Origin: a virus | Lineage: Duplodnaviria > Caudoviricetes | IMG/VR virus record: IMGVR_UViG_3300043654_000022 | Coordinates: 1-56,972 of that record | Strand: one strand, 5' to 3' | Length of the DNA: 56,972 nt | Program-made: the position numbers and the translations under genes | The notes under the pieces: generated by a model | Databases searched by the model: none | Told to the model about the DNA's origin: nothing | The model's input: the letters and a program-made list of their open reading frames with translations, nothing else | Shown: positions 1,746-44,935 of the stretch, piece after piece | Position numbering within the stretch: the stretch's first letter is position 1 | How the letters are laid out: the number at the start of each line of letters is the position of its first letter

Positions 1746-1822
1746 GGTGTTTGGACCCAAATGGCGAGGGCGTGGTCTGTGAAGCCAATGTTTAGTCGGC
1801 TCGATACCGACCTTACACCCCA
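1746..1822 (+). tRNA. tRNA-His(GTG)
   Basis: loop ctGTGaa, G-1:C73, encoded CCA; two U-U mismatches in acceptor, T-loop ctcgata. Confidence 0.8.
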
Positions 1823-1832
1823 AAAATAGTGC

Positions 1833-1861
1833 TTGACAAACGCAGAAAGTTCTGGTACACT
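1833..1861 (+). promoter_or_regulatory. sigma70-type promoter
   Basis: TTGACA-17-TACACT, same aaaaatagtNcttgacaaa context as 1698. Confidence 0.75.
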
Positions 1862-1903
1862 GGTTTTAGAGTCAAGAAAGTATTGACTAAGAAAGAAGAA
1901 CAA

Positions 1904-2131
1904 ATGAAGATAACCGCACTTCTTGCTGCTTTACTGATTGGTGGATTTGCTTTCGCACAAACGCCAGCACAAGGCGACCACAGAGTTCGTCTGTACGTAA
2001 AGAGAAACGGCACTACCGTTGCTCCCCACTATCAGACGAACCCAAACAAAACTCAGCGGGATAACTACAGCGCGGCGGGCCGATACAACCCTCACACGGG
2101 ACAATCAGGAACTAAGCACCCGAAGCGTTAA
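1904..2131 (+). CDS. small secreted protein (V..Y.KRNGT.VAPHYQT...DNYS..G..NPHTG..GT family)
   Basis: signal peptide ending AFA plus a recognisable motif of unknown function. Confidence 0.75.
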   Translation: MKITALLAALLIGGFAFAQTPAQGDHRVRLYVKRNGTTVAPHYQTNPNKTQRDNYSAAGRYNPHTGQSGTKHPKR

Positions 2132-2141
2132 AAGTTTCAGT

Positions 2142-2220
2142 CGTGGAATGGGAGAGTCTGGCCGTCTCCGCTCGTTTTGGAAACGAGAGAACCTTGGTTC
2201 AAATCCAAGTTCCGCGACCA
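2142..2220 (+). tRNA. tRNA-Pro(TGG)
   Basis: ctcgt-ttTGGaa-acgag, T-loop ttcaaat, CCA. Confidence 0.9.
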
Positions 2221-2290
2221 TTTTTGTGGCGTAACAGACCACGATTGAAGTAAATCGTTCTCGGACGTAAACCGAGTGGTTGAGTTCAGT

Positions 2291-2366
2291 TCCACTCTGG
2301 TCCAACAGGTAGGACACTTCACTGTTAATGAAGAGGGTCTCCGTTCGAATCGGAGGGGTGGAGCCA
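2291..2366 (+). tRNA. tRNA-Asn(GTT)
   Basis: cttca-ctGTTaa-tgaag, G73 CCA. Confidence 0.92.
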
Positions 2367-2375
2367 ATTTTTTAC

Positions 2376-2449
2376 GGGGTCGTCGTCCAGTGACAGGACG
2401 CTCGACTGTCTATCGAAGAACGGGGGTTTGATTCCCCTCGGCCCCGCCA
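2376..2449 (+). tRNA. tRNA-Asp(GTC)
   Basis: tcga-ctGTCta-tcga, G73 CCA. Confidence 0.9.
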
Positions 2450-2726
2450 TGATGTTGCAACAGTGCCGCAATGCTCCGGGTCGCCCCCGCGAAGCAGACT
2501 CGCTAGCTGGTTAAGGGTCAGAAGGCACACGGGACTTGAAAAATCCCCAAGGCGCGTCCGGGAACCGCGCGTTGATAAATAGTTCCTCGGATTTGTGTCC
2601 AGCACGGAGATATTATTGTGCTGGCAAAGCCAGTAGTGATTCACGTTTGGTAGCCGAGATAAATTGGTAACTCGGTGCCGACTGCCGAAAGGCCCGAACC
2701 GTGCCTCACGCCAATTGATTTTCTGT

Positions 2727-2811
2727 AGCCTCTTGGCGGAACGCATACGCTCTGGTTTTAGAAACCAGCGCCCGTAAGGGATTGAGAGTTCAAGTCTCTC
2801 AGAGGCTACCA
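2727..2811 (+). tRNA. tRNA-Leu(TAG)
   Basis: ctggt-ttTAGaa-accag, long V-arm, A73 CCA. Confidence 0.9.
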
Positions 2812-2957
2812 AGTTTTGGCTGAGTATGCTTCGCCGTGAAAACGGAATGAAGACCAACCAGCGGCTACGAGCCGCAAAGTTTGTACGTACATCGGTAGGG
2901 GGTGCCGCAATCATCCCCAGCCACTCTATTGCAGAGGGTGAAATAAAGAATTTCAGA

Positions 2958-3033
2958 CTCCTCGATTCTCGGACGGACGGGTACCGCACTTCTAAGGCGG
3001 ATTTAGAGAGTTCGAATCTCTCCGAGGGGTCCA
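2958..3033 (+). tRNA. tRNA-Arg(TCT)
   Basis: loop ctTCTaa, T-loop ttcgaat, CCA. Confidence 0.85.
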
Positions 3034-3178
3034 GTTTTTTCGTGGGTAGGTGTGACAACCGGGAGGCGAAACGAAAAAGCGGGAATTAGGATATGGTGTC
3101 TTCCCCCGCCGCGATGCAATCGTGAATCCGGTCTAGTCAACTGGAGTGCTTTGCACTGTGAGGACGCCACGATTTTTA

Positions 3179-3253
3179 GGGCTGCTCGTATATCGTATAA
3201 TGCACAGCGCTACGAACGCTGGGAGCGGGGTTAGACTCCCCGGTGGCCCTCCA
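3179..3253 (+). tRNA. tRNA-Arg(ACG)
   Basis: cagcg-ctACGaa-cgctg, CCA; T-loop ttagact. Confidence 0.88.
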
Positions 3254-3260
3254 TTTTAAT

Positions 3261-3347
3261 CGCCTGCTGGCGGAATTGGCAGACGCAGCGGATTCAAAAC
3301 CCGCCGCCCGAGAGGGCGTTAGAGTTCGAATCTCTAGTTGGCGACCA
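3261..3347 (+). tRNA. tRNA-Leu(CAA)
   Basis: loop ttCAAaa, long V-arm, A73 CCA. Confidence 0.9.
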
Positions 3348-3379
3348 TTTTGAAATCCATTGACTACGGTCAGGTGATT

Positions 3380-3799
3380 ATGAACAGCAACCAAAGAAAA
3401 GATGCAACGCTAGGAATGCCTCACGGCACCGCGAGTGGCAGACTTCGGAAGATGATTTTGTTCAATCTTTTGAAAAAGCACGGCGAGAATTCCTGCCATG
3501 CTTGCGGAAAGCCGATTGATTCTGTAGATGCTTTGAGTATTGAGCACAAGAAACCGTGGGAAGGGGTATCGGCTGACTTGTTTTGGGATTTAGAAAACAT
3601 AGCGTTTTCGCATCTTCGATGTAATACTCCGAACCGCCCTTACAACAATGGTGGGTGGAACAAGAAACCAGCCCCAGAAGGGATGGCGTGGTGCATCGGA
3701 CATCAAGTATTCGAACCAGTCGAAAACTTTTGGAAGAACGCAAGTTTTTGGAATGGTCTTGAGAAGTACTGCAAGACGACCAAGATTCGAAATAGATAA
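3380..3799 (+). CDS. HNH endonuclease (free-standing, inside tRNA array)
   Basis: CHACG...SIEHKKPW...NIAFSHLRCN. Confidence 0.85.
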   Translation: MNSNQRKDATLGMPHGTASGRLRKMILFNLLKKHGENSCHACGKPIDSVDALSIEHKKPWEGVSADLFWDLENIAFSHLRCNTPNRPYNNGGWNKKPAPEGMAWCIGHQVFEPVENFWKNASFWNGLEKYCKTTKIRNR

Positions 3800-3806
3800 A
3801 GATTTT

Positions 3807-3890
3807 GCGCGTGTGGCGGAAAGGCATACGCAGGGCACTTAAAACGCCCCGCCGAAAGGCATGAGGGTCCGACTCCCTCGGCGCGCACCA
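3807..3890 (+). tRNA. tRNA-Leu(TAA)
   Basis: loop ctTAAaa, V-arm gccgaaaggc, CCA. Confidence 0.9.
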
Positions 3891-3926
3891 AGTGACAAAG
3901 GCCCGACGCGAGTCGGGTCGGAGATT

Positions 3927-4000
3927 GCACGAATCGGCAAGTGGTAAGCTAGCTGTCTGCAAAACAGCCATCGCGTGTTCGATTCACGCTTCGTGCTCCA
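3927..4000 (+). tRNA. tRNA-Cys(GCA)
   Basis: gctgt-ctGCAaa-acagc, U73 CCA. Confidence 0.92.
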
Positions 4001-4080
4001 AGTTCGTCGGCCCTATTCACGAAGACAAGCCGAATCGTTTCTTCTCCGCGTTGGTAACGAAAACTCAAAGCGGAATATTT

Positions 4081-4355
4081 TGGTAGCGTAGACGAACGCG
4101 GTGAGAAACCCGAGAGGGCTATAAGCCGAGGAAAGTCAGGCCATATCTCAACGCCGCTTTGTGGAAGTTGCAAGACGCGTAAGCGTACGAGTAAGGACCC
4201 ATAACCGAAAGGTTCATTCGAGTGGGGTAACTCTCAGCGGATGTAAGTTCGAATAGGACCGGAGCGCTCGTTGAGCACAATGATGGTCGGGTTGAACGCA
4301 CAGAGGAATGTTCGTCACCGCGCAAGCGGAACAGAAGCCTGCTTATTCGTTGCCA
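4081..4355 (+). ncRNA. rnpB: RNase P RNA, compact (~275 nt)
   Basis: P1 tggtagcg/cgttgcca; CR-I GAGGAAAGTCAGGC; CR-IV AGAGGAATGTTCGTC; CR-V AACAGAAGCCTGCTTA; P6 tcaac/gttga; P7 ccgct/agcgg. Confidence 0.93.
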
Positions 4356-4398
4356 CTAAATTTTAGTTTTGTACGTACGCACGATAAGCGAGTTCAGT

Positions 4399-4473
4399 CG
4401 GTTGCTAGTGTCAAAGTAGCACAGCAGGCTCTTAACCTGACGAGTGAAAGTGCAAGTCTTTCGCGACCGACCA
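4399..4473 (+). tRNA. tRNA-Lys(CTT)
   Basis: cagg-ctCTTaa-cctg, CCA; T-loop tgcaagt. Confidence 0.85.
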
Positions 4474-4588
4474 ATTTTCGAAAGAGACGTGCTCCGCGCA
4501 CGAGAGCGAAATAATGCGGCGGCGGGCGAATGACGCCCTCAGTCTACCAAGACGTTACGAAGAGGTGGAATGCCTCAAAAGTTTCTGT

Positions 4589-4664
4589 ACCCGATTATCA
4601 AACTGGTCGTATGAACCTCTCCTACAAAGAGGCTGGCAGAGTTCGATTCTCTGATTGGGTACCA
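4589..4664 (+). tRNA. tRNA-Val(TAC)
   Basis: cctct-ccTACaa-agagg (C33), A73 CCA. Confidence 0.85.
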
Positions 4665-4671
4665 ATTTCTG

Positions 4672-4760
4672 TGGGGACGCAGTTCGCGGTAGAGTGAACG
4701 CTTGCGACATCCGGTACCGGACTCGTAAGATGGCGGGGGTGAATGACCCTCGGGTTCCCA
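4672..4760 (+). ncRNA. tRNA-like RNA with an extended, closed anticodon arm
   Basis: four-arm cloverleaf; anticodon loop replaced by tccggtaccgga palindrome; ends ccca. Confidence 0.5.
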
Positions 4761-4766
4761 GATTTT

Positions 4767-4857
4767 TGTCGGTAGCATCAGTATGCAGCGCGGTTTTATA
4801 AACCGCGAAGCTCCAGATGAGAGCGCCGAGAGTGGGCAGCACACTCACCGACAACCA
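4767..4857 (+). tRNA. atypical tRNA-Ile(TAT) with long variable arm
   Basis: tgtcggt/accgaca acceptor, gcggt-ttTATaa-accgc, 4-nt D-loop, T-loop ggcagca, A73 CCA. Confidence 0.75.
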
Positions 4858-4859
4858 AC

Positions 4860-4933
4860 GGCCCTGTCGTCTAAAGGCAGGACTTCCGCTTCTCAAGCGG
4901 AAAACGGCGGGTCAGTACCGCCCGGGGCTACCA
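4860..4933 (+). tRNA. tRNA-Glu(CTC)
   Basis: tccgc-ttCTCaa-gcgga, CCA; T-loop gtcagta. Confidence 0.88.
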
Positions 4934-4972
4934 AGTTTGAAAATGTAAGAGGAGCAGTTTTAAGATACTCTC

Positions 4973-5263
4973 ATGGCAAACAACTATAACTCGAATCCGA
5001 TTTTCATCGACAGCATAATGGCGGCAACCGCGAAGAATAGCGGCGCGACAACGACCAACTCGTTTCATATTAAAGAAATCGTGTGGAGCACACCCGGAAG
5101 CACCGCGGCAGATTCCGCCGTAATTCAAGACGGCTTGGGTAATGAAATTTTCGAACAACAATCGGGCCGAGCAGCACCTGAACTATTTAATCCACCGATG
5201 GTTATAGATGATTTCAAAGTAACAACTTTGGCAGATGGACACATTCTGATTTATTTGGTATAA
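4973..5263 (+). CDS. hypothetical beta-rich protein
   Basis: clean ORF between tRNAs with GAGGAG upstream. Confidence 0.7.
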   Translation: MANNYNSNPIFIDSIMAATAKNSGATTTNSFHIKEIVWSTPGSTAADSAVIQDGLGNEIFEQQSGRAAPELFNPPMVIDDFKVTTLADGHILIYLV

Positions 5264-5282
5264 AGCATAAGTTCAAAGATTC

Positions 5283-5376
5283 TCTCGTGTCGCTGTAAAC
5301 TATCGGCCTGTAGGTGAGCATAGGCGTCCGCTCGATAAGCGGAAGGTAGCTGGTTCGAATCCAGCGACCAGAACCA
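5283..5376 (+). tRNA. tRNA-Ile(GAT), aberrant 5' half
   Basis: tccgc-tcGATaa-gcgga, canonical T-arm, ACCA; imperfect acceptor with extra sequence before the D-arm. Confidence 0.6.
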
Positions 5377-5458
5377 ATTTCGAAGCGACACGGGTCCCGC
5401 GTACGCGGTACGTCGTCAACGGTGGGGAAGCCCGATGGGCCACCGAAAAATTTTTAAT

Positions 5459-5532
5459 CGCAGCGGAGAATTGGTATTCAAGTCTGTCTCATAAGCAGAC
5501 CTCCGAAGGTTCGTTTCCTTCCCCTGCGACCA
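5459..5532 (+). tRNA. tRNA-Met/Ile2(CAT)
   Basis: tctgt-ctCATaa-gcaga, A73 CCA. Confidence 0.85.
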
Positions 5533-5546
5533 ATTTAGGAGACCCG

Positions 5547-5885
5547 ATGATTGAACAAGCATGGACTAGTTTACAAGTCGCAGGTCTCGCGGCATTGACG
5601 TTGACCACGGTTCTTACGGCTCTTGCAGACGGCTACACGACGATGATTGGCATAGAGCACGGAGACGCGGAAAAGAATCCGCTTATCAAGTGGCTCTTCT
5701 CCAAACTAGGCCAGCAACTCACGCTGTTCCTCACGACGGGCGCGGTTCTCTTCGGCGGCGCGATTATCGCAGCGCACACGATGGCGGGTGGCTTCTTGTA
5801 CTTCGGCGCTATGACAGTTAGTCGCGGTATCCGCGCGCTGTTGAACTATCGCTTGTTGAAGAAGCAGAAGATTAGTTTGAAGTAA
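5547..5885 (+). CDS. membrane protein, DUF5658-like
   Basis: three hydrophobic segments; D..TT..G...G..E.NP motif; AGGAG SD. Confidence 0.7.
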   Translation: MIEQAWTSLQVAGLAALTLTTVLTALADGYTTMIGIEHGDAEKNPLIKWLFSKLGQQLTLFLTTGAVLFGGAIIAAHTMAGGFLYFGAMTVSRGIRALLNYRLLKKQKISLK

Positions 5886-5988
5886 GATTTTGAGTAGTGC
5901 CACACGACCCGCCTGACGTTTATGGTAGTCGTCCAGATGCTTTGTTCGGATAAAGGTAGTCCGTCCGTGACGCCGCTCCAGTTTCTAT

Positions 5989-6064
5989 GCCTCGTTAGCT
6001 CAGAAGCAGAGAACTCGGTTCTAACCGAGGGGTGGTACGGGTCGCGTCGTACACGGGGCTTCCA
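5989..6064 (+). tRNA. tRNA-like gene with 6-nt anticodon loop (ttctaa), identity unclear
   Basis: gcctcgt/acggggc acceptor, tagctcag D-arm, ctcgg/ccgag stem, 8-nt T-loop, CCA. Confidence 0.6.
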
Positions 6065-6071
6065 GTTTTGA

Positions 6072-6145
6072 GCCGATGTAGTTTAGTGACAGAACTTTTC
6101 TTTGGTAAAGAAAAAGCCTAAGTTTGATTCTTAGCGTTGGCTCCA
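6072..6145 (+). tRNA. tRNA-Thr(GGT)
   Basis: tttct-ttGGTaa-agaaa, CCA. Confidence 0.9.
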
Positions 6146-6154
6146 GTTTTCAAA

Positions 6155-6229
6155 GCCGAACTAGCTCAATGGTAGAGCGGCGCTTTTGTAAAGCGACGGT
6201 TCGCGGTTCAAGTCCACGGTCCGGCTCCA
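6155..6229 (+). tRNA. tRNA-Thr(TGT)
   Basis: canonical D-arm, loop ttTGTaa, CCA. Confidence 0.92.
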
Positions 6230-6247
6230 GTTTTGTAGCTACAATTT

Positions 6248-6296
6248 GACGGGGTGCCTTGAACACCCCGTCTCACTCTTTCAAGGAGGGTGAAAA
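6248..6296 (+). promoter_or_regulatory. kissing-hairpin leader covering the HNH gene SD
   Basis: loop ccttgaa complementary to loop ttcaagg, which overlaps AGGAGG. Confidence 0.65.
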
Positions 6297-6866
6297 ATGA
6301 AATATAAATGTGTTCGGTGTGGTGTTGAGTTTTTCAGAAAGCACGGTGCTAGAAAGTATTGCTCCGTCGCCTGTGCCCAGAGAAGACTAGAAGGCGAGTG
6401 CGCCGATTGTAAGAAAGTCATTTCAGCCAATAAGGTCCGATGTGCAGATTGTCGAAACAAGATACGAGATGAGTGGCCCGAAAAACAAAAGATTCAGAGA
6501 AGAGAAAACGCGTATAGAATAAGTCGAGAGCCGCGCGGTCGATTTCACAGGCTTAAGAAAAATTTGAAAGACGAGAAAGTCCCCTCATCAGACCCTATCT
6601 GGAATTTTAATTTTTATGCTGCTTTGATACAAGATGAGCAGTGTCATTACTGTTTCGGTCCTCTGAGTCCGACAGGACACGCGTTAGACAGAGTAATAAA
6701 CAGTTTGGGACACACGGCGGGTAATGTTGTTCCTTGCTGTTAGCCCTGCAACACTATTAAAGGAAAGTACTGGGAGTATGAGCACATGATGTTGCTTGCC
6801 CCCAAACTTAGAGGTCTAAGAATTTCAAAGCTGGAAGCGCCCGATGGCAGGGCACCTCTTTCGTAA
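6297..6866 (+). pseudogene. Zn-finger HNH endonuclease interrupted by in-frame TAG at 6741
   Basis: CHYC...LDRV...NVVPCC*PCNTIKG; frame stays open to TAA 6864-6866. Confidence 0.75.
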
Positions 6867-6904
6867 AGAGTTCTCCAAAGGTTCAATTCCTTTTTCTAGC
6901 TCCA
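6830..6904 (+). tRNA. tRNA-Thr(CGT)
   Basis: ctct-ttCGTaa-agag, CCA. Confidence 0.88.
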
Positions 6905-6914
6905 ATTTTTCTGA

Positions 6915-6988
6915 GCGGGACTGGCGTATTGGCAGCGCGACAGTCTTCCAAACTGTAGGAAAGGGTTCAACTCCCTTGTTCCGCTCCA
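6915..6988 (+). tRNA. tRNA-Gly(TCC)
   Basis: acagt-ctTCCaa-actgt, U73 CCA. Confidence 0.92.
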
Positions 6989-7003
6989 AAAATTACGTGG
7001 AAG

Positions 7004-7088
7004 TGCGGCGAAGACGGCGGGTCGCATCTGTCTGTAAAACAGACTGTCTTTGTGGCACTAGAAGGTCCGAATCCTTCCGCCGCAACCA
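7004..7088 (+). tRNA. tRNA-Tyr(GTA)
   Basis: tgcggcg/cgccgca acceptor, tctgt-ctGTAaa-acaga, V-arm, CCA; short D-arm. Confidence 0.85.
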
Positions 7089-7101
7089 ATTTCATATCAT
7101 A

Positions 7102-7128
7102 AACCCCCGACTTTCTTGGGGCTTTTTC
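7102..7128 (+). terminator. intrinsic terminator ending the tRNA operon
   Basis: cccccga/ttggggg stem followed by T-run. Confidence 0.65.
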
Positions 7129-7143
7129 ATTTACGGAGACCTC

Positions 7144-7509
7144 ATGGCAAACACGCCTACCGCGATGTATTCGCAAAATAGTTCGCAAAGCGGCACGACC
7201 GTTGCGGGAGCCTTCCCCCAAGGTCCGGGCAGCGCGCAGAATCTTGACCTGTTGCAGATTATCGGACAAGGCGGCAGCGTTCTCCTAAACGTTGATTCCG
7301 CAGGCGTAGTTCATAATGCCGCAGTCTCTCCGACAAACGGCACGCGCGTCGGCCAGTTTCAAACCCGCCTAAACAGCAGCGCAACCACGGCGCAGCTATT
7401 CGCGGATGCATTCTCGAACCCTTCTCAGCTAGACATTCTCCAAGTCATCAACGCGGGCGGCAACATCCATTACTTCCTAGACTACTTGGGAGTAGCGCAC
7501 GGTTCGTAA
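7144..7509 (+). CDS. putative virion protein with duplicated LD.LQ.I..GG......D..GV.H motif
   Basis: GGAG SD before ATG 7144; the longer track ORF overlaps tRNAs. Confidence 0.75.
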   Translation: MANTPTAMYSQNSSQSGTTVAGAFPQGPGSAQNLDLLQIIGQGGSVLLNVDSAGVVHNAAVSPTNGTRVGQFQTRLNSSATTAQLFADAFSNPSQLDILQVINAGGNIHYFLDYLGVAHGS

Positions 7510-7625
7510 TCCTCTGCGCTAAACTTCTATGTGGCAGCGCCGTTGTGGTCGCTGTAACCGAGAACTTTTTAAGAAAGACCCGTGGGCCGTCATCGTCTGT
7601 ATTTGCGGCTGGGTTTGGAGATAAC

Positions 7626-7862
7626 ATGGCCAACGTAGGAAATAGACAGAATCTAACCCCGGAAGAGGCAGCACTCGCTGTTGAGGTATACAACAGCGCA
7701 GGCCGCTTGGACAAAGTTAAAACCGACGCGGCTAACGATGTGATTTTTCACACCAACAACGTGGTGACTAGCGTCATAGCGGGTTCGGTTGTTAAGAACG
7801 CAGCGGCAACACTGGCGAACCACAAGACTGCCAGAGATAAGTTTCGAGCGGACAACAAGTAA
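7626..7862 (+). CDS. hypothetical protein
   Basis: GGAG SD, ATG 7626. Confidence 0.7.
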   Translation: MANVGNRQNLTPEEAALAVEVYNSAGRLDKVKTDAANDVIFHTNNVVTSVIAGSVVKNAAATLANHKTARDKFRADNK

Positions 7863-7985
7863 GGTCCAGCAAAAATTTTGAGCGGCTCACAGCACGTCCT
7901 AAGTGTGTCGCCAATAAAAAGCGTTTCGTCGGCGTAAATCCCAATAAAGGGAGCGTTGACGTTGCGTATACATAAAAGGTGATAC

Positions 7986-8591
7986 ATGAGTAACGTACTA
8001 GATTTCGGCGTAGTCGGCGCATTCCCATCAAAGGTGGGTGGAACCGGAACAGCCGTGAAGTATTTCCCTCGTCCGCTTGGCCCGTCAATCGGCGTGGCTC
8101 CGACGACTCCGTCTTCGACGAGCGCAGCGGGCGCGCTTTTGCTCCCGGCTGCTAACGTTTACAACGGTCAGCAGATTTCTGTTTTGGCATCAGGTTCTTT
8201 CGGTTCAGACACTGGCGACCCATCGGGAACCGTGACGGTGAAGTTGTATGGCGTAACTGGCAGCTTGACTTCTCCGGTTTACACCGCGCTTGCGGCAACC
8301 ACCGCGTTCGTTCCGACGTTCGCAGCGGCAGAATCGTGGGCAATCGAAGCCACCTTGTATGGCGACAGCAACTCGGGTGTTCTTGGTGGCTCGTACTCAT
8401 CGTACGTTCAAGGCGCTTTGAACAACTCTAGCCCGAAGACCTCGGACAGCGTCATCAGCGGTTTGAACTTCAACACGGGCAACCCGGCGCTTGCACAAGG
8501 CGCAGTGCTTGGCTTCGTCGTTGGTGTGACCTTCGGCACTTCGGACGCAAGTAACACCGCGTCGTTGTTCCAGTTCACCATCGAGTCGTAA
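7986..8591 (+). CDS. putative structural/decoration protein
   Basis: G/S/T/A-rich beta composition, SD, downstream terminator. Confidence 0.7.
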   Translation: MSNVLDFGVVGAFPSKVGGTGTAVKYFPRPLGPSIGVAPTTPSSTSAAGALLLPAANVYNGQQISVLASGSFGSDTGDPSGTVTVKLYGVTGSLTSPVYTALAATTAFVPTFAAAESWAIEATLYGDSNSGVLGGSYSSYVQGALNNSSPKTSDSVISGLNFNTGNPALAQGAVLGFVVGVTFGTSDASNTASLFQFTIES

Positions 8592-8598
8592 AGTCTCA

Positions 8599-8625
8599 GG
8601 GGAGTCGAAAGGCTCCCCATTTTTC
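8599..8625 (+). terminator. intrinsic terminator
   Basis: ggggagtc-gaaa-ggctcccc followed by T-run. Confidence 0.75.
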
Positions 8626-8719
8626 CCTGTCGCTGGTGCGCCCCTAAATACGGCGACCACGCGGGCGTGTGAAATCCACAGCACCCACGGGTTATAGCCC
8701 CGGATTTTTTAAGGACACC

Positions 8720-9001
8720 ATGTTTGACCCAGCTAGTTTAACTTTGGGACAGGTGTCATCGACCCTCAGAGACTTTGCGGTAGTAGGATTTCTTGTCGGA
8801 GTCGCGTGGAGAGCGCGCGGCGGTTTTGAACTAGTTAAGAAATTCTTTGAGCGTTTGACGACGTTTATGGATACTGTGGAGCAAGATAGCGCCTTCATTC
8901 GTGAGGGCATGCAAACGCTCCTACACAACCATCTGACCCACATCGAAGCAGATTTGAAGACCATCTCGGGCCGCAAGGACGAGAGTGTTTTCGGAGAGTA
9001 A
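8720..9001 (+). CDS. single-TM protein with coiled tail (holin-like?)
   Basis: AAGGA SD; hydrophobic FAVVGFLVGVAW. Confidence 0.6.
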   Translation: MFDPASLTLGQVSSTLRDFAVVGFLVGVAWRARGGFELVKKFFERLTTFMDTVEQDSAFIREGMQTLLHNHLTHIEADLKTISGRKDESVFGE

Positions 9002-9003
9002 TT

Positions 9004-9189
9004 ATGCCGTTCGAGAGCGCAGCACAACGAGGCTACCTCCACGCTCATCCTGAGATTTTAGGGAAGAAGGCGTTGGCTGAGTGGGATGCTGCGTCGAAGG
9101 GCCAACACGTACCGGAGCACGTCCACAAGACGGCATCATACTCGGTGGCTCGCGCAACAAGAAAAGAATCTGAGAAGAAAGAGGGCTAA
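9004..9189 (+). CDS. small conserved phage protein (MPF.S.AQ..YLHA..PE...EW..A..G..P..V)
   Basis: recognisable small phage motif, GGAG SD. Confidence 0.7.
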   Translation: MPFESAAQRGYLHAHPEILGKKALAEWDAASKGQHVPEHVHKTASYSVARATRKESEKKEG

Positions 9190-9190
9190 C

Positions 9191-9859
9191 GTGGCGGCGG
9201 ATAAACTAGTACAAATTGAGTCCGGCGTTCAAAGATGGGCGCTTGCGTTCGTCGGTGGTACGGACACAGGCGACCAACCGAAGTCTTGTTTCAACTGCCC
9301 ATTTCTCTATATCCACCAAAGACGATGCCAGATTCATGGACCGGATATCATCATCGACCGAGTTACAAAGGGCGGACAGGTTTACACGCCAGTCTGTTGT
9401 TACCAACGCGGGGGGACACCTCTCGCGGTTGGAGACAATGAAGTCGTTTATAATGTCAACACGCTTGGTGATAAGGCCGCGAACCAAACTGGATTAGAGT
9501 GGGCTAAGAGCTCTACTGGCACCAATTGCGGTGGATTCAAAGACGGCGCACCGTGCGAACACTTTATCGTTACAGATGGCAAGGGCATAGACGGCGATTG
9601 TGCTCTCATGTCTGAGAAGCAAGATGCGACCAGCGATGCAATGTCCGAGCACAAAGGAAGAAGCGTTGACTGGGACGATTGTTGTGATGGGCACGAAGGC
9701 GAGAATATCTCGTGGCGAGAAGCACAGAAGCTGATTGGGCCGGACAAAGCTAAGTTCAAGTTTCAAAATTTGAGTGTCGGCGTAAATAACGCGCCGTCCA
9801 AGACCGAAGATTCTGAATACGTCCGCGCAAGAGCGGAGCGTAAAGCAAAACAGATTTGA
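9191..9859 (+). CDS. Cys-rich hypothetical protein
   Basis: GTG after GAGGG; CxxC, CC and further Cys. Confidence 0.7.
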   Translation: MAADKLVQIESGVQRWALAFVGGTDTGDQPKSCFNCPFLYIHQRRCQIHGPDIIIDRVTKGGQVYTPVCCYQRGGTPLAVGDNEVVYNVNTLGDKAANQTGLEWAKSSTGTNCGGFKDGAPCEHFIVTDGKGIDGDCALMSEKQDATSDAMSEHKGRSVDWDDCCDGHEGENISWREAQKLIGPDKAKFKFQNLSVGVNNAPSKTEDSEYVRARAERKAKQI

Positions 9860-9867
9860 GAGGGAAT

Positions 9868-10149
9868 ATGCGTCATCACAACTTTAGTCACACCGTTACC
9901 GAACACCACGACGACGGCTCGCACACGATTCACCACGTTCACAAGAAGCACGGCTTCGTGGGGCCGGAGAAGCGTGATGGAGACGTGAAGGGTGCGGCAA
10001 TGAACCACGACGCGATGATGGACCACATTATGGACCACACATCGATGCCGAATCCGGGCGAAGGCAAGAACGCGGATAACGAGGCGATGGGAGAGCAAGT
10101 CTCGCCGGGCGCTCACCCGAATGTTGCGGCGATGCAACAGGGAGCCTAA
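9868..10149 (+). CDS. His/Met-rich small protein
   Basis: HHNFSHTVTEHHDDGSHTIHHVH. Confidence 0.7.
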   Translation: MRHHNFSHTVTEHHDDGSHTIHHVHKKHGFVGPEKRDGDVKGAAMNHDAMMDHIMDHTSMPNPGEGKNADNEAMGEQVSPGAHPNVAAMQQGA

Positions 10150-10150
10150 T

Positions 10151-10339
10151 ATGGCAAAGTCTGACGCATCATTTTACCGCTCGATGCATCACCTCCGCAA
10201 AGGTGGGCTGCACGACGCGCTCAACATTCCAAAGGACCAAAAGATTCCCGCGGAGCGTTTGGAGAAGGCAAAGAACTCTTCTAACCCGCACGTTAAGAAG
10301 ATGGCCGTCTTGGCAAACAACATGAAGCATTGGGGATAA
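10151..10339 (+). CDS. small basic phage protein (KGGLH.AL.IP..KIP...L.KA family)
   Basis: recognisable motif, GGGAG SD. Confidence 0.7.
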   Translation: MAKSDASFYRSMHHLRKGGLHDALNIPKDQKIPAERLEKAKNSSNPHVKKMAVLANNMKHWG

Positions 10340-10340
10340 C

Positions 10341-10643
10341 ATGAAGCTGACACCTGAGTTCGTCACTAAGGCGATGGAGAAGATGTCGCCGTGGTTGGCC
10401 AAGGCGTTCAGCGACAACGGTACGCCTAGCTCGTCCCGTTTGTTGACGCTGCTTCATTCTCTTGTCGGATGCGGCGTTCTGATTTACGTGATTGTGAAGA
10501 CGCACCTCTTACCGGATGGCACCACGCTGGCTGGGTTGGGCGCGTTCTCCACGGCGCACTACGCAGTCAATCGCGCGACCAACGCGTGGGGCAAGGACAA
10601 GAACGTTGCCAAGCCGGACGGCGACGATAAAGTTTCGCAGTAA
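10341..10643 (+). CDS. two-TM membrane protein (holin candidate)
   Basis: G.PSSSRLL followed by two hydrophobic helices. Confidence 0.6.
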   Translation: MKLTPEFVTKAMEKMSPWLAKAFSDNGTPSSSRLLTLLHSLVGCGVLIYVIVKTHLLPDGTTLAGLGAFSTAHYAVNRATNAWGKDKNVAKPDGDDKVSQ

Positions 10644-10719
10644 ACCCGGAGCAGAGGATTCCGCGAGGGAGCCGGGCTGAACGGTAATGCTCTGCAAAGA
10701 GCCGTTCACGGATAGACTC

Positions 10720-11583
10720 GTGAAGAAACTACTCTTGGCAGCAGCACTGTTGCTGTTGTCTATTCCTATGTTCGCAGCAACAAAGCCGACTCCTCAGTTC
10801 TCCGATACCTTGTCCAAGTCAACCTTGGCCGTGTATGTCGGTAAACAGGAATGCGGCTACAATACTGTGTCCACTTTCTTTGGCAGCACCGATGTGTGGT
10901 CGTGTGAGTTCAAGTCTCGATTCACCTGCACTGCAACCGTGGTTGAAGCGGATGGTCGAGGCAGTTACGCCGGATTGACGGCGGGACACTGCTTCTCGTA
11001 CGAGGCGCTCGACAAGGGATACAAGTACTACGTTTCTGATAATTTGAGTGAACATCCGGTAGTGAGTGAAATCTCTTTACAGAAATTTGCGAACGAGCCC
11101 CGCTATGACTACGCGGTGTTCACCTTTCACAGTTTGAAAAATTATGTGCCCATCGAGTTCCAAAAAGAGGGCGCAGCGCCACCAGTTGGTACTGAGACGA
11201 TGAATGTAAACTTCTCTCTCGGCGTCGTGAAGCAGGTTGTAGAAGGCAAAGTTCTCTCGACTCAAATTACTGGGCAAGAAGATAAAGGTCACGAAAGTTT
11301 GCAAGGTCGTTTCTTCGTAGCCATCGGCATAGGTCCGGGCGCATCCGGCTCCGCTATCGTGGACAAGAAGACGCATAAAATTGTTGGCATGGTTGAAGCA
11401 GTATTCCCAAGTACCCAGATGGCGACAATCGTGGTTCCGATGGGAAACCAATTCGTAAACTTCATGGATGACGCCTCGGCGGGGTTGAAGCCAGAGAAGT
11501 CAAAAGCACATGTTCCGACTTTTCGCGAGTTGGTTGCTGACCTATTGAGCCGCATTTTCAACAAGATAAAATTTTGGAGCTAA
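10720..11583 (+). CDS. secreted trypsin-like (S1) serine protease
   Basis: signal peptide; TAGHC, DYA, GASGS catalytic motifs. Confidence 0.85.
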   Translation: MKKLLLAAALLLLSIPMFAATKPTPQFSDTLSKSTLAVYVGKQECGYNTVSTFFGSTDVWSCEFKSRFTCTATVVEADGRGSYAGLTAGHCFSYEALDKGYKYYVSDNLSEHPVVSEISLQKFANEPRYDYAVFTFHSLKNYVPIEFQKEGAAPPVGTETMNVNFSLGVVKQVVEGKVLSTQITGQEDKGHESLQGRFFVAIGIGPGASGSAIVDKKTHKIVGMVEAVFPSTQMATIVVPMGNQFVNFMDDASAGLKPEKSKAHVPTFRELVADLLSRIFNKIKFWS

Positions 11584-11584
11584 C

Positions 11585-11851
11585 ATGAGTTCGATACCAA
11601 GCATTCTTGAGGGCGCGAAGCAAGCATTGAAAAACGCCGACAACTTCGGTCAGCGAGAAACGGGCAACAAGAAAGCAGGCAGCCCGCCTAGCTATGCTGC
11701 CGCACATGAGGCGCGCAAGGCTGAGGGCTCAGCTACGGCACACGCCGCCGCACCAGCAAAAGAATTTATGGGGGTTCGTTCTGATGAAGCCCCGGAGCTA
11801 AATACCGCTCTCAAAGCGAGAGGGGACGCTCAAAAAGCATTGAACGAATAA
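11585..11851 (+). CDS. hypothetical protein
   Basis: GGAG SD. Confidence 0.65.
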   Translation: MSSIPSILEGAKQALKNADNFGQRETGNKKAGSPPSYAAAHEARKAEGSATAHAAAPAKEFMGVRSDEAPELNTALKARGDAQKALNE

Positions 11852-11863
11852 CCGAGGATTCCC

Positions 11864-14179
11864 ATGTTGACCGCAGAAGAGAGAAAAGAACAAGCCCGCC
11901 GTAGAAAGGCAAATCAGCGTGCTCGTGAAAAAGGTCAACCGGAGCCGTACAAGGTTACTGAGGAAGAAAAGGCTTTTAAGAAAGTGCGCGAGGAGCAATA
12001 CGAGAAAGACCTTGCGTGGGCGCGCCAACAAGATGCGAGTGGGAAGTTTTACAAAGAAGAGTGCCGTGGCACTGAGCAGCTTCTCGCAATCTATTACGGC
12101 AACAACACCGGAGTAGAGGAAGAGGACGACGAAGAAGGGTCGGAAGCCAACAAGAAAAAGAAGGCTCAGCAGAATATGCCGAACCCGGCGATTCAGCCTA
12201 TCCGTATTCTTGCGTCGGAGACTGTCGAAAATGGCGAGCGCGTACTCATCAACCCGGATGACGTGAAGTACCAAGGTTTCTACGAAGTCAGTAAGGTGCT
12301 GGCGTTCCGCGAGTGGTTGGATTATAGAAGCAAAGGCCGCCGCGATTTGTTTTGGCTTTCAGGTCTTCTGGATAAGCCTTTATTTCACGACGTTCATCAC
12401 CTCATTTGCGACATGTTTGTGCAAAAGAATTTCACGGGTAGGTACTATCCGGGGTTCAACCGCCACACCGTGAGCGCGATAATTAATTCACAAGTGCGCT
12501 TTTCAGCCGACGGGTCACCGACCCGAACCGCTTTGATTTTTGCTCCTCGCGGCGTGTGGAAGTCGACTATCGACGGCATCGATGCCGTGCAGTGGATGTT
12601 GAACGCACCAGACGTTCGCATCATGATTATTACGGCGTTTCGCACCCTATCAAAACAGTTTTTGAAGGAAATTAAGAGTTACTTCTATTTGCCGCCGCGC
12701 GGCGAGGCTACGGCATTTCAGTTGTTGTACCCAGAGTACGTTCTTACAGGCTTAGCGGGCCGCTCCAGAGAGCCGCTCGAATGCCCAGCCGCCACATTGA
12801 AATCGAAGGAACCCCACTTGTGGGTCACGTCGATGGAGTCGTCCATTACAGGCCAGCGCTGCGATATTTGTAAAGCAGACGATATCGTGGACCCGAAGAA
12901 TTCGACCGATGAGGTGATGAGACAGGGCCTCGTTGACAAGTTCAACGGAGCGTTGAACCTCACTGAACCTTGGGGATTCATCGACACCATTGGCACACGC
13001 TACTTCACAGACGACTATTACGGCACCCGTATGCAGGCGGATGAAGACGGCACTGTTGCGCCATTCTCTTTGTTGAGTTTGTCGGCGTGGTATCCGAAGC
13101 CGGGATTTGAGGTCACGTATCAGCGCCTTTTGGAAGAGCCGAACGGCATGTCGCAGGTCACCGAAGACATGGTCGATTTGCTGTTTCCATTCAAACTGAA
13201 TTTCGTCACCTTGCGTCGCAAGCTGTTAGACACGAAAGAGCGCAAGTCAACGAACATTCAAAAAGAACGCAATTTCCGTAACCAGTATTTGAACATTGCA
13301 ACTGACCCAGCAGAGGTCAGTGAGTTCACCGTACACTTCGAGATGCAGACGCTCCGCAGCATGACGTATGCATTGTCTGCCGCACCAACGGCAGGCGAGA
13401 CGTTCGTATCGATTGATTGGGCGTACTCGGACGGCAAGACCTCAGACTACTCGGCGTTGGCGGCAGTTCGTCGCCACACACGCGCGGATGGAACTTACGA
13501 GCTAATCGTTTTGGAAGTTCTGTTCGGTAAATGGAAGTCCTCAGTGCTGGCCGAAAAGATTGTTCTGTTCTTGAGAAAGTATCAGCCCGCCGCCACCTTC
13601 ATCGAGAAGGCGCTGGGACATGATTTGCTTCACACACTTCTTGTTTGGAACGCTGGCCGCTACCAAGTTGATTTGAGTCGCGTACAATACGTCCCAACAG
13701 GAAACACAAAGAACGAGAAAGCAAACCGCATCAAGACTTTAGAAGTCCTCGTAGCCGCGGAGCGCCTGCACTTTGTGGCAGGTCCGTGGATTGACGAACT
13801 GTACAAGCAGTTCGAGGGCTTCACAGGCGATACAAAGAAGGGCAGAAAAGACGACATTCCAGACGCAATCTCTCGTGTTAGCAAGACGCTCCCGTCCACG
13901 ATGTTTACGGGAGTCGAGTACGACGAGATAGAAGAGAAGCGTTTGGCAGAAGAAGAAACAAAGCAACTCCGTAAGGCGCACCACTACAACACGTACTTTG
14001 GGACCAACTACGGCGGCACAATAAAGTACCCCGGCCCGCCGTCAACACAGGCCCCAACCGTTCGACAGTGGTTAAACGGTGGAACACTGCCGCCGCTGAC
14101 AATCACCGAAGTTGCACCAGCGAAACCGCAGGACCCGAGAATGAAAATATTCGGCAATAGAGGTCCTTGGAGACTTTAA
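11864..14179 (+). CDS. terL: terminase large subunit
   Basis: Walker A APRGVWKST, Walker B ICKADD, coupling IGTRY, nuclease SIDWAYS..SDYSA and KDDIPDA. Confidence 0.93.
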   Translation: MLTAEERKEQARRRKANQRAREKGQPEPYKVTEEEKAFKKVREEQYEKDLAWARQQDASGKFYKEECRGTEQLLAIYYGNNTGVEEEDDEEGSEANKKKKAQQNMPNPAIQPIRILASETVENGERVLINPDDVKYQGFYEVSKVLAFREWLDYRSKGRRDLFWLSGLLDKPLFHDVHHLICDMFVQKNFTGRYYPGFNRHTVSAIINSQVRFSADGSPTRTALIFAPRGVWKSTIDGIDAVQWMLNAPDVRIMIITAFRTLSKQFLKEIKSYFYLPPRGEATAFQLLYPEYVLTGLAGRSREPLECPAATLKSKEPHLWVTSMESSITGQRCDICKADDIVDPKNSTDEVMRQGLVDKFNGALNLTEPWGFIDTIGTRYFTDDYYGTRMQADEDGTVAPFSLLSLSAWYPKPGFEVTYQRLLEEPNGMSQVTEDMVDLLFPFKLNFVTLRRKLLDTKERKSTNIQKERNFRNQYLNIATDPAEVSEFTVHFEMQTLRSMTYALSAAPTAGETFVSIDWAYSDGKTSDYSALAAVRRHTRADGTYELIVLEVLFGKWKSSVLAEKIVLFLRKYQPAATFIEKALGHDLLHTLLVWNAGRYQVDLSRVQYVPTGNTKNEKANRIKTLEVLVAAERLHFVAGPWIDELYKQFEGFTGDTKKGRKDDIPDAISRVSKTLPSTMFTGVEYDEIEEKRLAEEETKQLRKAHHYNTYFGTNYGGTIKYPGPPSTQAPTVRQWLNGGTLPPLTITEVAPAKPQDPRMKIFGNRGPWRL

Positions 14180-43581: not shown

Positions 43582-44100
43582 CTAAAGGCTAAATCCAAGT
43601 CCGGCCTTCTCAGACCAGTCCTTGCGTGCGGAAATTTCGGAGCCCACCTTGGTGTAGCGGGCGGTGATGTCTTTGGCCGCGTGGCCTGCCCAAAACTTCA
43701 CCAGCGTCTCCGGGACGTTGGCGAGTTGCAGGTGAGTGATGCGAAAGCGACGAAGGGAGTGGAAGCCTTCCAGCCCCAAGGCTTTAAACTTGCGGCGGTA
43801 CTGGCGCTCCGATTGGGGGAACATCGGGCCTTCTAGATTCGCGAATTGCGAACGCAGAAGGGCGTTGATTTCCGGGGCGAGGTCAACAATACGCTTCCCG
43901 GCCCGGGTCTTCGGGCCCGTCTGGAAAACACCCTCTACAAGGGTCCCAGAGACCGTAATCGACCCCTGTATGGGGTCCCAGACGTTGCCTTGCCCGATAG
44001 CCAGCGCCTCCCCAATTCTGAGACCAGAGCCTGCTAAGAGGACGATAAGTAGCCTCAATCGGCTATTAGGCGCTCTGTGAGACGACTTTTCAAGAATCAT
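43582..44100 (-). CDS. tyrosine integrase, catalytic half
   Basis: GLRIGE, HSLRR, AGH, TARY intact; own GGAGG SD before ATG 44100. Confidence 0.88.
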   Translation of the reverse strand: MILEKSSHRAPNSRLRLLIVLLAGSGLRIGEALAIGQGNVWDPIQGSITVSGTLVEGVFQTGPKTRAGKRIVDLAPEINALLRSQFANLEGPMFPQSERQYRRKFKALGLEGFHSLRRFRITHLQLANVPETLVKFWAGHAAKDITARYTKVGSEISARKDWSEKAGLGFSL

Positions 44101-44506
44101 GGGTCTTTTCCTCCACCGAGGGTAATTCTGGCTTATAAACGATTCTAGGGCCATTTACGACAATTGCTAGAATATCGCTTTTCATTCGCTCTTTGGATGT
44201 GGTAGGTTCCCCTTTCTTGTTTAAATATCCGGTGCGTACTTCGACGGTGAAAAGAAGTGAACCTCTCTTGACCACTAAATCCGAGGAACCCCAAGGACTA
44301 ACATTTCTATAAACTTCAAATCCTTTATGAAGCAAATCAGCAGAGACAAGTAACTCGCTTTCTGCCCCCAAATTTGACCCTTTTGCTTTAGAATCCGAGC
44401 GAACGTTTTCCCAATGCCTTTTTGACCCACAGCGCGAAGAACAAAATTTCGCTGTTTCCTGCTTATTAGGGTCAAGAGTTTTTCCGCATCTCCAACATTT
44501 TCTCAT
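44090..44506 (-). CDS. PD-(D/E)XK homing-type endonuclease with Zn finger
   Basis: CWRC..FCSSRC; G..SE..V..DL...G.EV...DLVV...VEVRT. Confidence 0.8.
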   Translation of the reverse strand: MRKCWRCGKTLDPNKQETAKFCSSRCGSKRHWENVRSDSKAKGSNLGAESELLVSADLLHKGFEVYRNVSPWGSSDLVVKRGSLLFTVEVRTGYLNKKGEPTTSKERMKSDILAIVVNGPRIVYKPELPSVEEKTHDS

Positions 44507-44901
44507 TGCAATAGCCTCAAAATTTCTGTTAGCCGCTCTCCTGTAATTATGGGAGTCTTCTGGGAGTCCGGGTCGATGCCGGGGGCCTTGATATAGTCTG
44601 AGTTCCAAACGACCGGGTAAAGGGGGTTGCCGCGGCCATCCACGGCGCTCTTAACCACCTGCTTGACAAGGGTGACCGCCAAGCCTATCGTGGCAGGGCT
44701 AAGGCGAGCCTCGGCAAGATGGCTCACCAGCGACTTGGCGGTCTTGTTGTCGACTTCCTCTAATTCCAACCCGCCGATGGCGGGGTTGATTCGGTTGTCG
44801 AGGATGGAGCGGTAGACGTGCAGCGTGTTAGGACGTGCCACGCTGGCGATGTCGGCTAAGTACGCCTCGGCTTGTTTTGAGAACGTCATTACGCTATCCA
44901 T
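44503..44901 (-). CDS. tyrosine integrase, N-terminal core-binding half
   Basis: TF...AE.YL.......NT...Y...L...I.P.IG...L..V, LSPATI, LKQ-like VKQVVK.AV. Confidence 0.8.
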   Translation of the reverse strand: MDSVMTFSKQAEAYLADIASVARPNTLHVYRSILDNRINPAIGGLELEEVDNKTAKSLVSHLAEARLSPATIGLAVTLVKQVVKSAVDGRGNPLYPVVWNSDYIKAPGIDPDSQKTPIITGERLTEILRLLQ

Positions 44902-44907
44902 GTTACG

Positions 44908-44935
44908 AGTATACACGATTCCGGGTTTTTGTCAA
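44908..44935 (-). promoter_or_regulatory. sigma70 promoter of the integrase (probably leaderless)
   Basis: TTGACA-16-TATACT; ATG 7 nt after the -10. Confidence 0.65.

Follow-up and report, generated by a model that had tools for sequence, protein, structure and literature searches.

The question raised by the transfer RNA (tRNA) array of IMGVR_UViG_3300043654_000022 is whether tRNA genes with altered elbow letters in their T- and D-loops are losing their function or have been rebuilt in another form. This viral contig of 56,972 bases (completeness rated at ~54%) is called the window below; its array lies at 1746-7088 and holds 22 tRNA-like genes, all on the + strand and all with an encoded 3′ CCA. 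Few features of cellular tRNAs are as conserved as the pair G19:C56, G18-pseudouridine55, and T54-A58, which many enzymes and RNAs read. The near-invariant pattern of G18 G19 and T54 Ψ55 C56 R57 A58 does not hold in the window, where 11 of the 22 T-loops deviate: all eleven atypical strings that an earlier reading of this DNA (the original prediction) had listed as departures from TTCRA are present at the T-loop position, and the other eleven T-loops read TTCRA. D-loops without GG occur in Asp, Thr-GGT, Arg-ACG, Lys-CTT, tRNA(UAU), and Leu-TAG.

It appears fairly probable, judging from the letters of these genes, that most of the eleven tRNAs with deviant T-loops still work, with an elbow rebuilt from other nucleotides and kept paired. 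The D-loops claimed by the original prediction for three of them are as described. Both tRNA-Asp(GTC) (2376-2449; T-loop tttgatt at 2427-2433, U56) and tRNA-Thr(GGT) (6072-6145; T-loop tttgatt at 6123-6129, U56) have the D-loop agtgaca (G18 A19), and tRNA-Arg(ACG) (3179-3253; T-loop ttagact at 3231-3237, A56) has atcgtata (G18 U19), so that 19:56 would be kept as a Watson-Crick pair, A:U in the first two and U:A in the third. Three further features (A18:G55, G54 together with G58, and a lone D-loop G) had been missing from that prediction. In tRNA-Lys(CTT) (4399-4473; T-loop tgcaagt at 4451-4457, G55; D-loop caaagta, A18), and likewise in the long-arm tRNA(UAU) (4767-4857), whose D-loop is the 4-nucleotide (nt) cagt (A18 G19) and whose T-loop is ggcagca (4835-4841; G54 G55 C56 G58), G18-U55 would be replaced by A18-G55, with G19:C56 kept in the former. 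The tRNA(UAU) and tRNA-Glu(CTC) (4860-4933; T-loop gtcagta at 4911-4917, G54 and G58; D-loop aaaggca) would both carry G54-G58 in place of U54-A58, and tRNA-Leu(TAG) (2727-2811), with a canonical T-loop (ttcaagt), has the D-loop gaacgcata, a single G where relatives have GG; the same D-loop is found in the related array G009. Finally, tRNA-Leu(TAA) (3807-3890; T-loop tccgact at 3868-3874) and a long-arm tRNA read as Tyr(GTA) (7004-7088; T-loop tccgaat at 7066-7072) would have exchanged U55 for C55 with G18 G19 kept. Selection would, in such a scheme, maintain the L-shape needed by the ribosome but constrain the choice of elbow bases less strongly in these phages than in cells; matched double changes could then be fixed lineage by lineage. 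A likely side effect is that host enzymes would no longer make T54, pseudouridine 55, and Gm18 where these positions are changed.

Contigs of relatives were recruited through the terminase from virus and metagenome collections, with a word from the RNase P RNA leading to G012 and a word from tRNA-Val leading to G017. Ten other arrays were readable, specifically G001, G005, G006, G008 (last 4 tRNAs only), G009, G012, G017, M054, M051, and M037; G007, with a tRNA list identical to that of G006, and G002/L027, which repeat G001, were left out. Gene order is largely common to the related arrays, and orthologs were therefore comparable between them. ARAGORN parses 19 of the 22 window genes, the remaining three being the long-arm tRNA(UAU), an aberrant gene at 5989-6064, and a 3′ fragment at 5323-5376. 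The family set was limited to ARAGORN calls at a threshold of 85 on the + strand that end in CCA, giving 240 tRNAs from 11 arrays (232 distinct, 230 with a 7-nt T-loop); excluded were ~20 non-CCA or minus-strand calls, two Gly(GCC) with 8-nt T-loops, and the three special genes of the window. Residues 18 and 19 were placed by the position of the GG in the most similar D-loop of equal length, and neither position 56 nor the T-loop was consulted. Covariance-model alignments (A5, A6, A8, A9) were tried for 19:56 and dropped in favor of a gap-free alignment (A4) and this placement rule; they had put D-loops of other lengths into inserts, which left the G19 column gapped in 28/88 and 21/97 rows.

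Covariation at the elbow runs through the whole phage family. In the gap-free alignment of 45 family tRNAs, 19:56 is G:C in 42, A:U in two, U:A in one, and unpaired in none; the cloverleaf stems are paired in 96.1% of cells, a value reached by 0/500 shuffles, and the tertiary pairs 8:14 and 15:48 covary, as in ordinary tRNAs. Across the 230 distinct family tRNAs, the pair is G:C in 214, A:U in five, C:G in five, U:A in four, and ambiguous in two, the ambiguous cases being the Leu-TAG of the window and of G009, with one G where relatives have two. With pairing inferred from sequence, 228/230 family tRNAs are thus complementary at 19:56, as are 18 of the 19 parsed tRNAs of the window (Leu-TAG being ambiguous). 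The original prediction had proposed that 19:56 covariation be sought in homologous tRNAs of related phages, and it was found there: every one of the 14 tRNAs without C56 has a Watson-Crick partner at 19 (Fisher p = 1.4e-20), and none of 100000 permutations reached 14, the highest giving 5. These 14 lineages are Asp and Thr-GGT of the window, Arg-ACG of the window and G017, Arg-CCG of G001, His of G009, Cys of G017, Cys and Glu-TTC of G006, and Lys-CTT, Arg-TCG, Thr-TGT, Thr-GGT, Glu-TTC, and Arg-TCT of G012.

The second contact changes as strictly, with A18 accompanying every G55 in the family set (5/5, p = 2e-10; Lys-CTT of the window, Arg-ACG and Ile-GAT of G009, Phe of G008, and Leu-TAG of G017). 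The tRNA(UAU) of the window follows the same A18:G55 switch, having the D-loop cagt vs. gggt or cggc in its orthologs together with the T-loop ggcagca. G54 is found only with G58 (2/2, p = 4e-5; Glu-CTC of the window and tRNA(UAU) of G005), and again the tRNA(UAU) of the window does likewise. The commonest change is C55, with 19 cases, in all of which G18 is kept and G57 is present.

Deviant T-loops are more frequent in the window than elsewhere. They make up 38/221 of the tRNAs in the ten related arrays and 5/96 of those in five cultured-phage arrays, which were picked solely as the best GenBank matches to the window array. The share in the window (11/22) differs from that in the cultured phages with a Fisher p = 2e-6 and, when only the ARAGORN set is counted (9/19), from that in the relatives with p = 0.004; related and cultured-phage arrays also differ from each other (p = 0.004).

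The conservation of the variants, which the original prediction had taken as a test, was borne out for two of them and was not seen for eight others in the orthologs sampled. The tRNA-Arg(ACG) with U19:A56 is identical at 75/75 positions in G017, alongside an upstream spacer that matches at only 47/70 and a neighboring Leu-CAA that matches at 81/87; in the G006 ortholog, which matches it at 92%, the pair is G19:C56, and the double change would thus have arisen on a short branch. The identity of this gene amid a diverged spacer points to purifying selection on the U19:A56 allele. Taken with the 14/14 complementary partners at 19 and with intact stems, it upholds the view that the paired changes argue for selection rather than decay. 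The C55 of Leu-TAA is common to the window, G017, G006, and G005. At 19:56 of Thr-GGT, the window has A:U, whereas G001, G005, G006, M054, and G017 have G:C and G012 has U:A. Contigs of four DNA sequencing runs matched the window in short pieces (e.g., 3799-3892 with one other letter, 5398-5541 with three, and 4582-4730 with one); among the matches listed, no row fell within the D- or T-loop of a variant tRNA, and no conclusion on conservation was drawn from them. In the canonical tRNA-Asn(GTT) (2291-2366; T-loop ttcgaat), one relative has matched T-stem changes, 2340 with 2354 and 2341 with 2353.

An HNH endonuclease gene (3338-3799, +) sits between Leu(CAA) and Leu(TAA), and the stretch 3348-3806 is identical at 459/459 positions in G017 (L081, about 3944-4402), with differing flanks. 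It looks like a homing endonuclease that has recently spread within the tRNA array.

Several observations weigh against rebuilt, working elbows. The placement of residues 18 and 19 follows our own rule, and the covariance-model alignments are too gappy in the D-loop to confirm it. Sequence kinship inflates the shuffle tests, although the 14 cases are 14 different tRNA lineages. Because tRNA-Arg(ACG) lies 94 bases upstream of the HNH gene stretch that is 459/459 identical in G017, recent gene conversion is a possible cause of its own identity. Eight deviants of the window (His, Asp, Lys-CTT, Glu-CTC, Met, Thr-GGT, Tyr, and the 5989 gene) do not recur in the sampled orthologs, those of the first seven being only ~70-80% identical to them. 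No partner is visible for some changes (C54 of His, U58 of Met, and C55 as a rule). Lastly, the small size of the array (22 genes vs. 31-34), a tRNA fragment, and the aberrant gene fit some erosion.

No close relative with a whole array was found in the virus and metagenome collections searched: terminase relatives at 66-81% identity (L024, L006, L007, and L012/G008) were contigs without an array or with just its last four tRNAs, four of 38 metagenome loci held tRNAs, one of them being a second copy of the G001 contig, and the tRNA-Val word gave seven matches, three in arrays (G006, G007, G017) and four not in arrays. In GenBank, 50 records matched single tRNAs only, over ~1% of the query, and no related cultured phage was found. 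Host scans, based on the terminase and on the tRNA-Val word over 185,579 genomes, gave no match, and no RNA data set was among the listed sources of this DNA.

An unlikely alternative is that the elbow bases were changed by positive selection to escape host readers of the T- and D-loops (a modification-dependent check, for instance, or a nuclease that attacks tRNAs), with pairing kept so that the ribosome still accepts the tRNAs. Encoding tRNAs and an RNase P RNA of its own as well as an RtcB RNA ligase (48477-49805; Pfam E = 2e-108), the phage is equipped for a conflict over tRNAs, and the most-changed positions, 55 (24/230) and 56 (14/230), coincide with sites recognized or modified by host T-loop enzymes. 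Recognition would change for enzymes that depend on U54, U55, C56, or G18 themselves (TrmA, TruB, TrmH). Phage tRNAs have been proposed to resist host tRNA nucleases in two papers (PMC10264068; PMC11555353), where the changes concern the anticodon loop. However, only 11/22 window tRNAs are changed and 214/230 family tRNAs keep G:C; the changed isoacceptors differ between phages, and Thr-GGT is A:U, U:A, or G:C depending on the phage. Watson-Crick swaps would also keep the stacking face that, according to passages of PMC4810234, RNase P, the L1 stalk, and T-boxes recognize, and among the matches listed the literature held no defense nuclease that targets the T-loop. A more elaborate form, in which the family purposely alters 54, 55, 56, and 18/19 to escape base-specific host T-loop readers while preserving the shape required by the ribosome, and a phage RNase P without an elbow reader ensures trimming, is distinctly doubtful.

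The role of the phage RNase P was weighed separately. A reduced, class A-like RNase P RNA of 281 nt (4080-4360) is encoded between tRNA-Cys(GCA) (3927-4000; canonical T-loop ttcgatt) and Lys(CTT). Against the class A model RF00010 it scores 80.9 bits (E = 5e-25), below the gathering score of 100; the core stretches GAGGAAAGUC and ACAGAA aligned to the model, whereas the J11/12 model stretch aligned to gaps, P12-P14 span 26 nt (77 in the model), and P18 is missing. It thus falls short of RF00010 both in score and in the J11/12-J12/13 T-loop modules, which passages of PMC4810234 describe as stacking on the tRNA elbow, and the original prediction's wording, an RNase P without the elbow sensor, is a fair description. 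Its further suggestion that remodeled elbows explain this ribozyme found no support. The RNA is shortened in all eight arrays that cover the region (260-325 nt and 72.7-102 bits, vs. a 367-position model), and the J11/12 stretch is wholly or largely gaps in five of the six alignments read (window, G006, G005, G001, and G009); in the sixth, from G012, the J11/12 part was not shown and 75 letters stand for 105 model positions, and for G017 and M054 length and score only were recorded. Deviant T-loops in arrays with the shortened RNA number 1/33 in G001, 1/26 in M054, 14/34 in G012, and 11/22 in the window. The reduced RNase P RNA is a family-wide trait that does not track the elbow changes, and these neither explain nor follow the ribozyme, because G001 and M054 have few deviants yet possess the shortened form too.

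It is accordingly improbable that a ribozyme without an elbow module has freed the elbow to drift, as in animal mitochondria. Such co-evolution would fit the shortened RNA in 8/8 arrays, the gapped J11/12 stretch in 5/6 alignments, the loss of this RNase P module in mitochondria that also lack the elbow (passages of PMC4810234), and perhaps the family's excess of deviant loops over cultured phages (38/221 vs. 5/96). Besides the lack of correlation within the family, however, the elbow is kept paired rather than lost, it is still constrained by the ribosome, and stacking on 19:56 should be independent of which Watson-Crick pair is present. An elbow-ignoring ribozyme would at most remove one of several constraints. 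Normal cleavage of a double mutant, G19A/C56U, has been described for a protein-only RNase P of plants (passages of PMC4797305), which shows only that such a pair fits a folded substrate. No phage-encoded RNase P RNA was found in the open-access literature, subscription journals being outside this scope.

Signs of decay are confined to particular genes. Three of the eleven deviants more likely are decaying or have another job: tRNA-His(GTG) (1746-1822, with G-1; T-loop ctcgata at 1800-1806, C54; D-loop aaatggcga), which has three stem mismatches, was called by ARAGORN at a lowered threshold, and scores 15.4 bits with our own covariance model (R1) built on the 45 family tRNAs; tRNA-Met(CAT) (5459-5532; T-loop ttcgttt at 5510-5516), with U58 and no matching change, an acceptor C-C mismatch, and a 6-nt D-loop; and the aberrant tRNA-like gene (5989-6064), with a 6-nt anticodon loop (ttctaa), an 8-nt T-loop (ggtcgcgt, 6040-6047), and one extra base 5′ of the CCA. 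The last has a homolog in G006 (L020:10392-10467) with the loop catttaa, and its T-arm is not of T-loop type; as its own loop contains CTA, a suppressor-like reading is possible but unsupported. A TAG recoding that would take in this gene and an in-frame TAG at 6741 was considered and rejected, as long genes are intact under code 11 and nothing is gained under TAG=Q.

The 3′ part of a tRNA-Ile(GAT) (5323-5376; canonical T-loop ttcgaat) is identical over 54 bases to tRNA-Ile(GAT) of G005, from the 3′ D-stem to the CCA (the 3′ two thirds), with the 5′ acceptor strand and D-arm replaced; it is probably a pseudogene and looks like a rearrangement scar. The replacement lies just downstream of a small open reading frame (ORF) at 4973-5260.

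With the Rfam tRNA model RF00005 (gathering cut-off 29 bits), 15/22 window genes score at or above the cut-off, four fall below it (Met, 27.7; the 5305 gene, 25.4; Arg-TCT, 24.5; and the 5989 gene, 22.5 bits), and three have no match (His, Val, and tRNA(UAU)), Val and His being nevertheless called by ARAGORN and R1. A cloverleaf with a 7-bp acceptor stem, a 5-bp T-stem, and 7-nt anticodon and T-loops is formed by the 19 ARAGORN-parsed genes with 0-3 stem mismatches, and tRNA(UAU) agrees with it by alignment; the 5989-6064 gene, with its 6-nt and 8-nt loops, and the fragment at 5323-5376 do not. Stem mismatches per tRNA average 1.06 in those with deviant T-loops (n = 47) vs. 1.02 in canonical ones (n = 193; Mann-Whitney p = 0.82). 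That the odd T-loops as a set mark tRNA genes losing function in an eroding array, as the smaller array, the 3′ fragment, the 6-nt anticodon loop, the defects of His and Met, and the seven low or missing Rfam scores might suggest, is highly improbable because stem quality is equal in deviant and canonical tRNAs, and in addition the inter-loop contact is kept in five of the eleven (Asp, Thr-GGT, Arg-ACG, Lys-CTT, and tRNA(UAU)), the Arg-ACG and Leu-TAA variants are conserved across phages, and the fragment itself carries a canonical T-loop.

If most of these elbows are indeed rebuilt and working, a family with all four Watson-Crick forms at 19:56 and a strict A:G switch at 18:55 would amount to a natural mutagenesis experiment, one that separates what the elbow requires (paired, flat) from letters merely frozen in cells. 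It offers ready-made pairs of variant and revertant, e.g., Arg-ACG of the window and of G006, for work on RNase P, T-loop modification enzymes, the ribosome, and defense nucleases. Standard tRNA models overlook such genes or score them too low, which matters for annotation: 7/22 here are below the Rfam cut-off or unmatched. The open-access literature held no description of this 19:56 and 18:55 covariation in phage tRNAs (subscription journals being outside the search), and in a paper on L-arrays (PMC8421152) the words T-loop, G18, G19, C56, elbow, and tertiary are absent.

The remaining tRNAs of the array have canonical T-loops: Pro(TGG) (2142-2220; ttcaaat), Arg(TCT) (2958-3033; ttcgaat), Leu(CAA) (3261-3347; ttcgaat), Val(TAC) (4589-4664; ttcgatt), Thr(TGT) (6155-6229; ttcaagt, with three stem mismatches), Thr(CGT) (6830-6904; ttcaatt), and Gly(TCC) (6915-6988; ttcaact). 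At default settings ARAGORN called 16 window tRNAs, and a lower threshold added His (1747-1822), Lys(CTT) (4399-4473), 5989-6060, and 7004-7088; the Ile(GAT) fragment, as 5305/5313-5370, came from Rfam and R1. ARAGORN takes 7004-7088 (Rfam, 31.9 bits) as Phe(AAA) in another register; we infer Tyr(GTA) from a perfect 5-bp stem that frames the anticodon loop ctgtaaa (7032-7038), the long arm, and the nearest relative, Tyr(GTA) of G009 at 77%. The array is probably one transcription unit, with two promoter-like sites at its head on the + strand (TTGACA-17-TACCAT, 1698-1726, and TTGACA-17-TACACT, 1833-1861) and a terminator-like hairpin with a T-run (7105-7130, +) directly 3′ of the last tRNA, all of these being consensus matches only. 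Its 22 genes compare with 31-34 in G001, G005, G006, G012, and G017; the window array is shorter because 7089-11863 holds only protein ORFs, whereas in relatives the interval from Tyr to the terminase region contains tRNAs for Trp, Ser, Phe, and Gln (two). Other genes of the window encode a large terminase (11864-14179), a portal protein, a major head protein, an integrase-like pair, an endolysin-like protein, and the RtcB RNA ligase.

The tRNA(UAU) gene received no program call in the window and was recognized by full-length alignment to ARAGORN tRNA-Ile(TAT) genes in G001, G005, M054, and G012. Genes of its kind (window 4767-4857; L005:4431-4520; L054:1243-1333), found in at least five arrays, combine a long variable arm with a D-loop of 4-5 nt and an anticodon stem of 5-6 bp; their first acceptor pair covaries, being T:A in the window and G005 and A:T in G001 and M054. 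At this site G006 carries a tRNA-Ile(UAU) of the usual short-arm type. Val and tRNA(UAU) are separated by a spacer (4665-4766, +) that has a cloverleaf-like three-arm fold without a CCA (z = -3.1) and is almost identical in M054 (L054:1141-1242), with shorter versions in G001 and G005. The tRNA-Val(TAC) itself is 100% identical in the window, G006, M054, and G017 (L020, L054, and L081 for the latter three), and pairwise terminase identity among the window, G006, and M054 is only ~40-50%; with single genes apparently exchanged between them, the arrays resemble mosaics. In another Cys-rich, HNH-like ORF (6297-6863, +), a C-x-x-C motif contains the in-frame TAG at 6741; the read-through product of this ORF had no Pfam match, and the ORF is probably a pseudogene.

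Elsewhere in the window, three tandem copies of a 19-base unit, gagttattaaaaaatgta, were seen by eye upstream of the array (~331-390, +). Integrase domains lie on separate ORFs at 43582-44151 (-) and 44503-44913 (-), a catalytic domain and an N-terminal SAM-like domain, and the integrase is either split or frameshifted. A calcineurin-like phosphoesterase (56017-56676, -) and the RtcB gene (48477-49805, -) could be a tRNA repair kit; the same two functions are annotated beside the array of Erythrobacter phage vB_EliS-L02.

That cultured phage (OL955261.1) is the first of several systems with which the window array was compared. It has 32 ARAGORN tRNAs, next to which an RtcB-type RNA ligase and a metallophosphoesterase are annotated, and four of the 32 are deviant, including a Glu with the D-loop agcgatcta and the T-loop tttgaat (A19:U56); however, this share is lower than in the window (4/32 vs. 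11/22), and similarity between the two is limited to single tRNAs. In work on phage tRNAs that withstand host nucleases (PMC10264068, van den Berg et al., 2023; PMC11555353, Azam et al., 2024), the cluster is likewise seen as a replacement pool that differs from host tRNAs at sites read in the host, but these papers concern anticodon loops and make no claim on the elbow, and the words T-arm, D-arm, and T-loop are absent from PMC10264068. Passages of PMC7609411 describe small D-loops and lengthened stems in tRNA-Pyl and tRNA-Sec, and G18 G19 and TΨC missing in tRNA-Pyl. The tRNA(UAU) of the window is similar in its 4-nt D-loop and long variable arm, and its G001 ortholog matches the Rfam tRNA-Sec model best, at 34.7 bits, which is below the cut-off; unlike these, its anticodon is UAU, and the other deviants of the window are of ordinary architecture.

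Compared with the canonical tRNA of RF00005, the window tRNAs share the cloverleaf, the 7-nt T-loop, a Watson-Crick 19:56 pair, and covarying 8:14 and 15:48, and 15/22 reach the cut-off; they differ from it by the absence of TTCRA in 11/22 T-loops and by exchanged contacts at 19:56 (A:U or U:A, three tRNAs), 18:55 (A:G, two tRNAs), and 54:58 (G:G, two tRNAs). Animal mitochondrial tRNAs, according to passages of PMC4810234 and PMC7609411, have likewise lost the letters G18 G19 and TΨC beside an RNase P without interdigitated T-loops. A mitochondrial type of elbow loss would leave no covariation between the loops, whereas here the changes are matched in 14/14 cases at 19:56 and in 5/5 at 18:55; unlike the mitochondrial tRNAs, the family of the window has reduced its RNase P without any parallel to the elbow changes and keeps the contacts of the elbow by matched changes.

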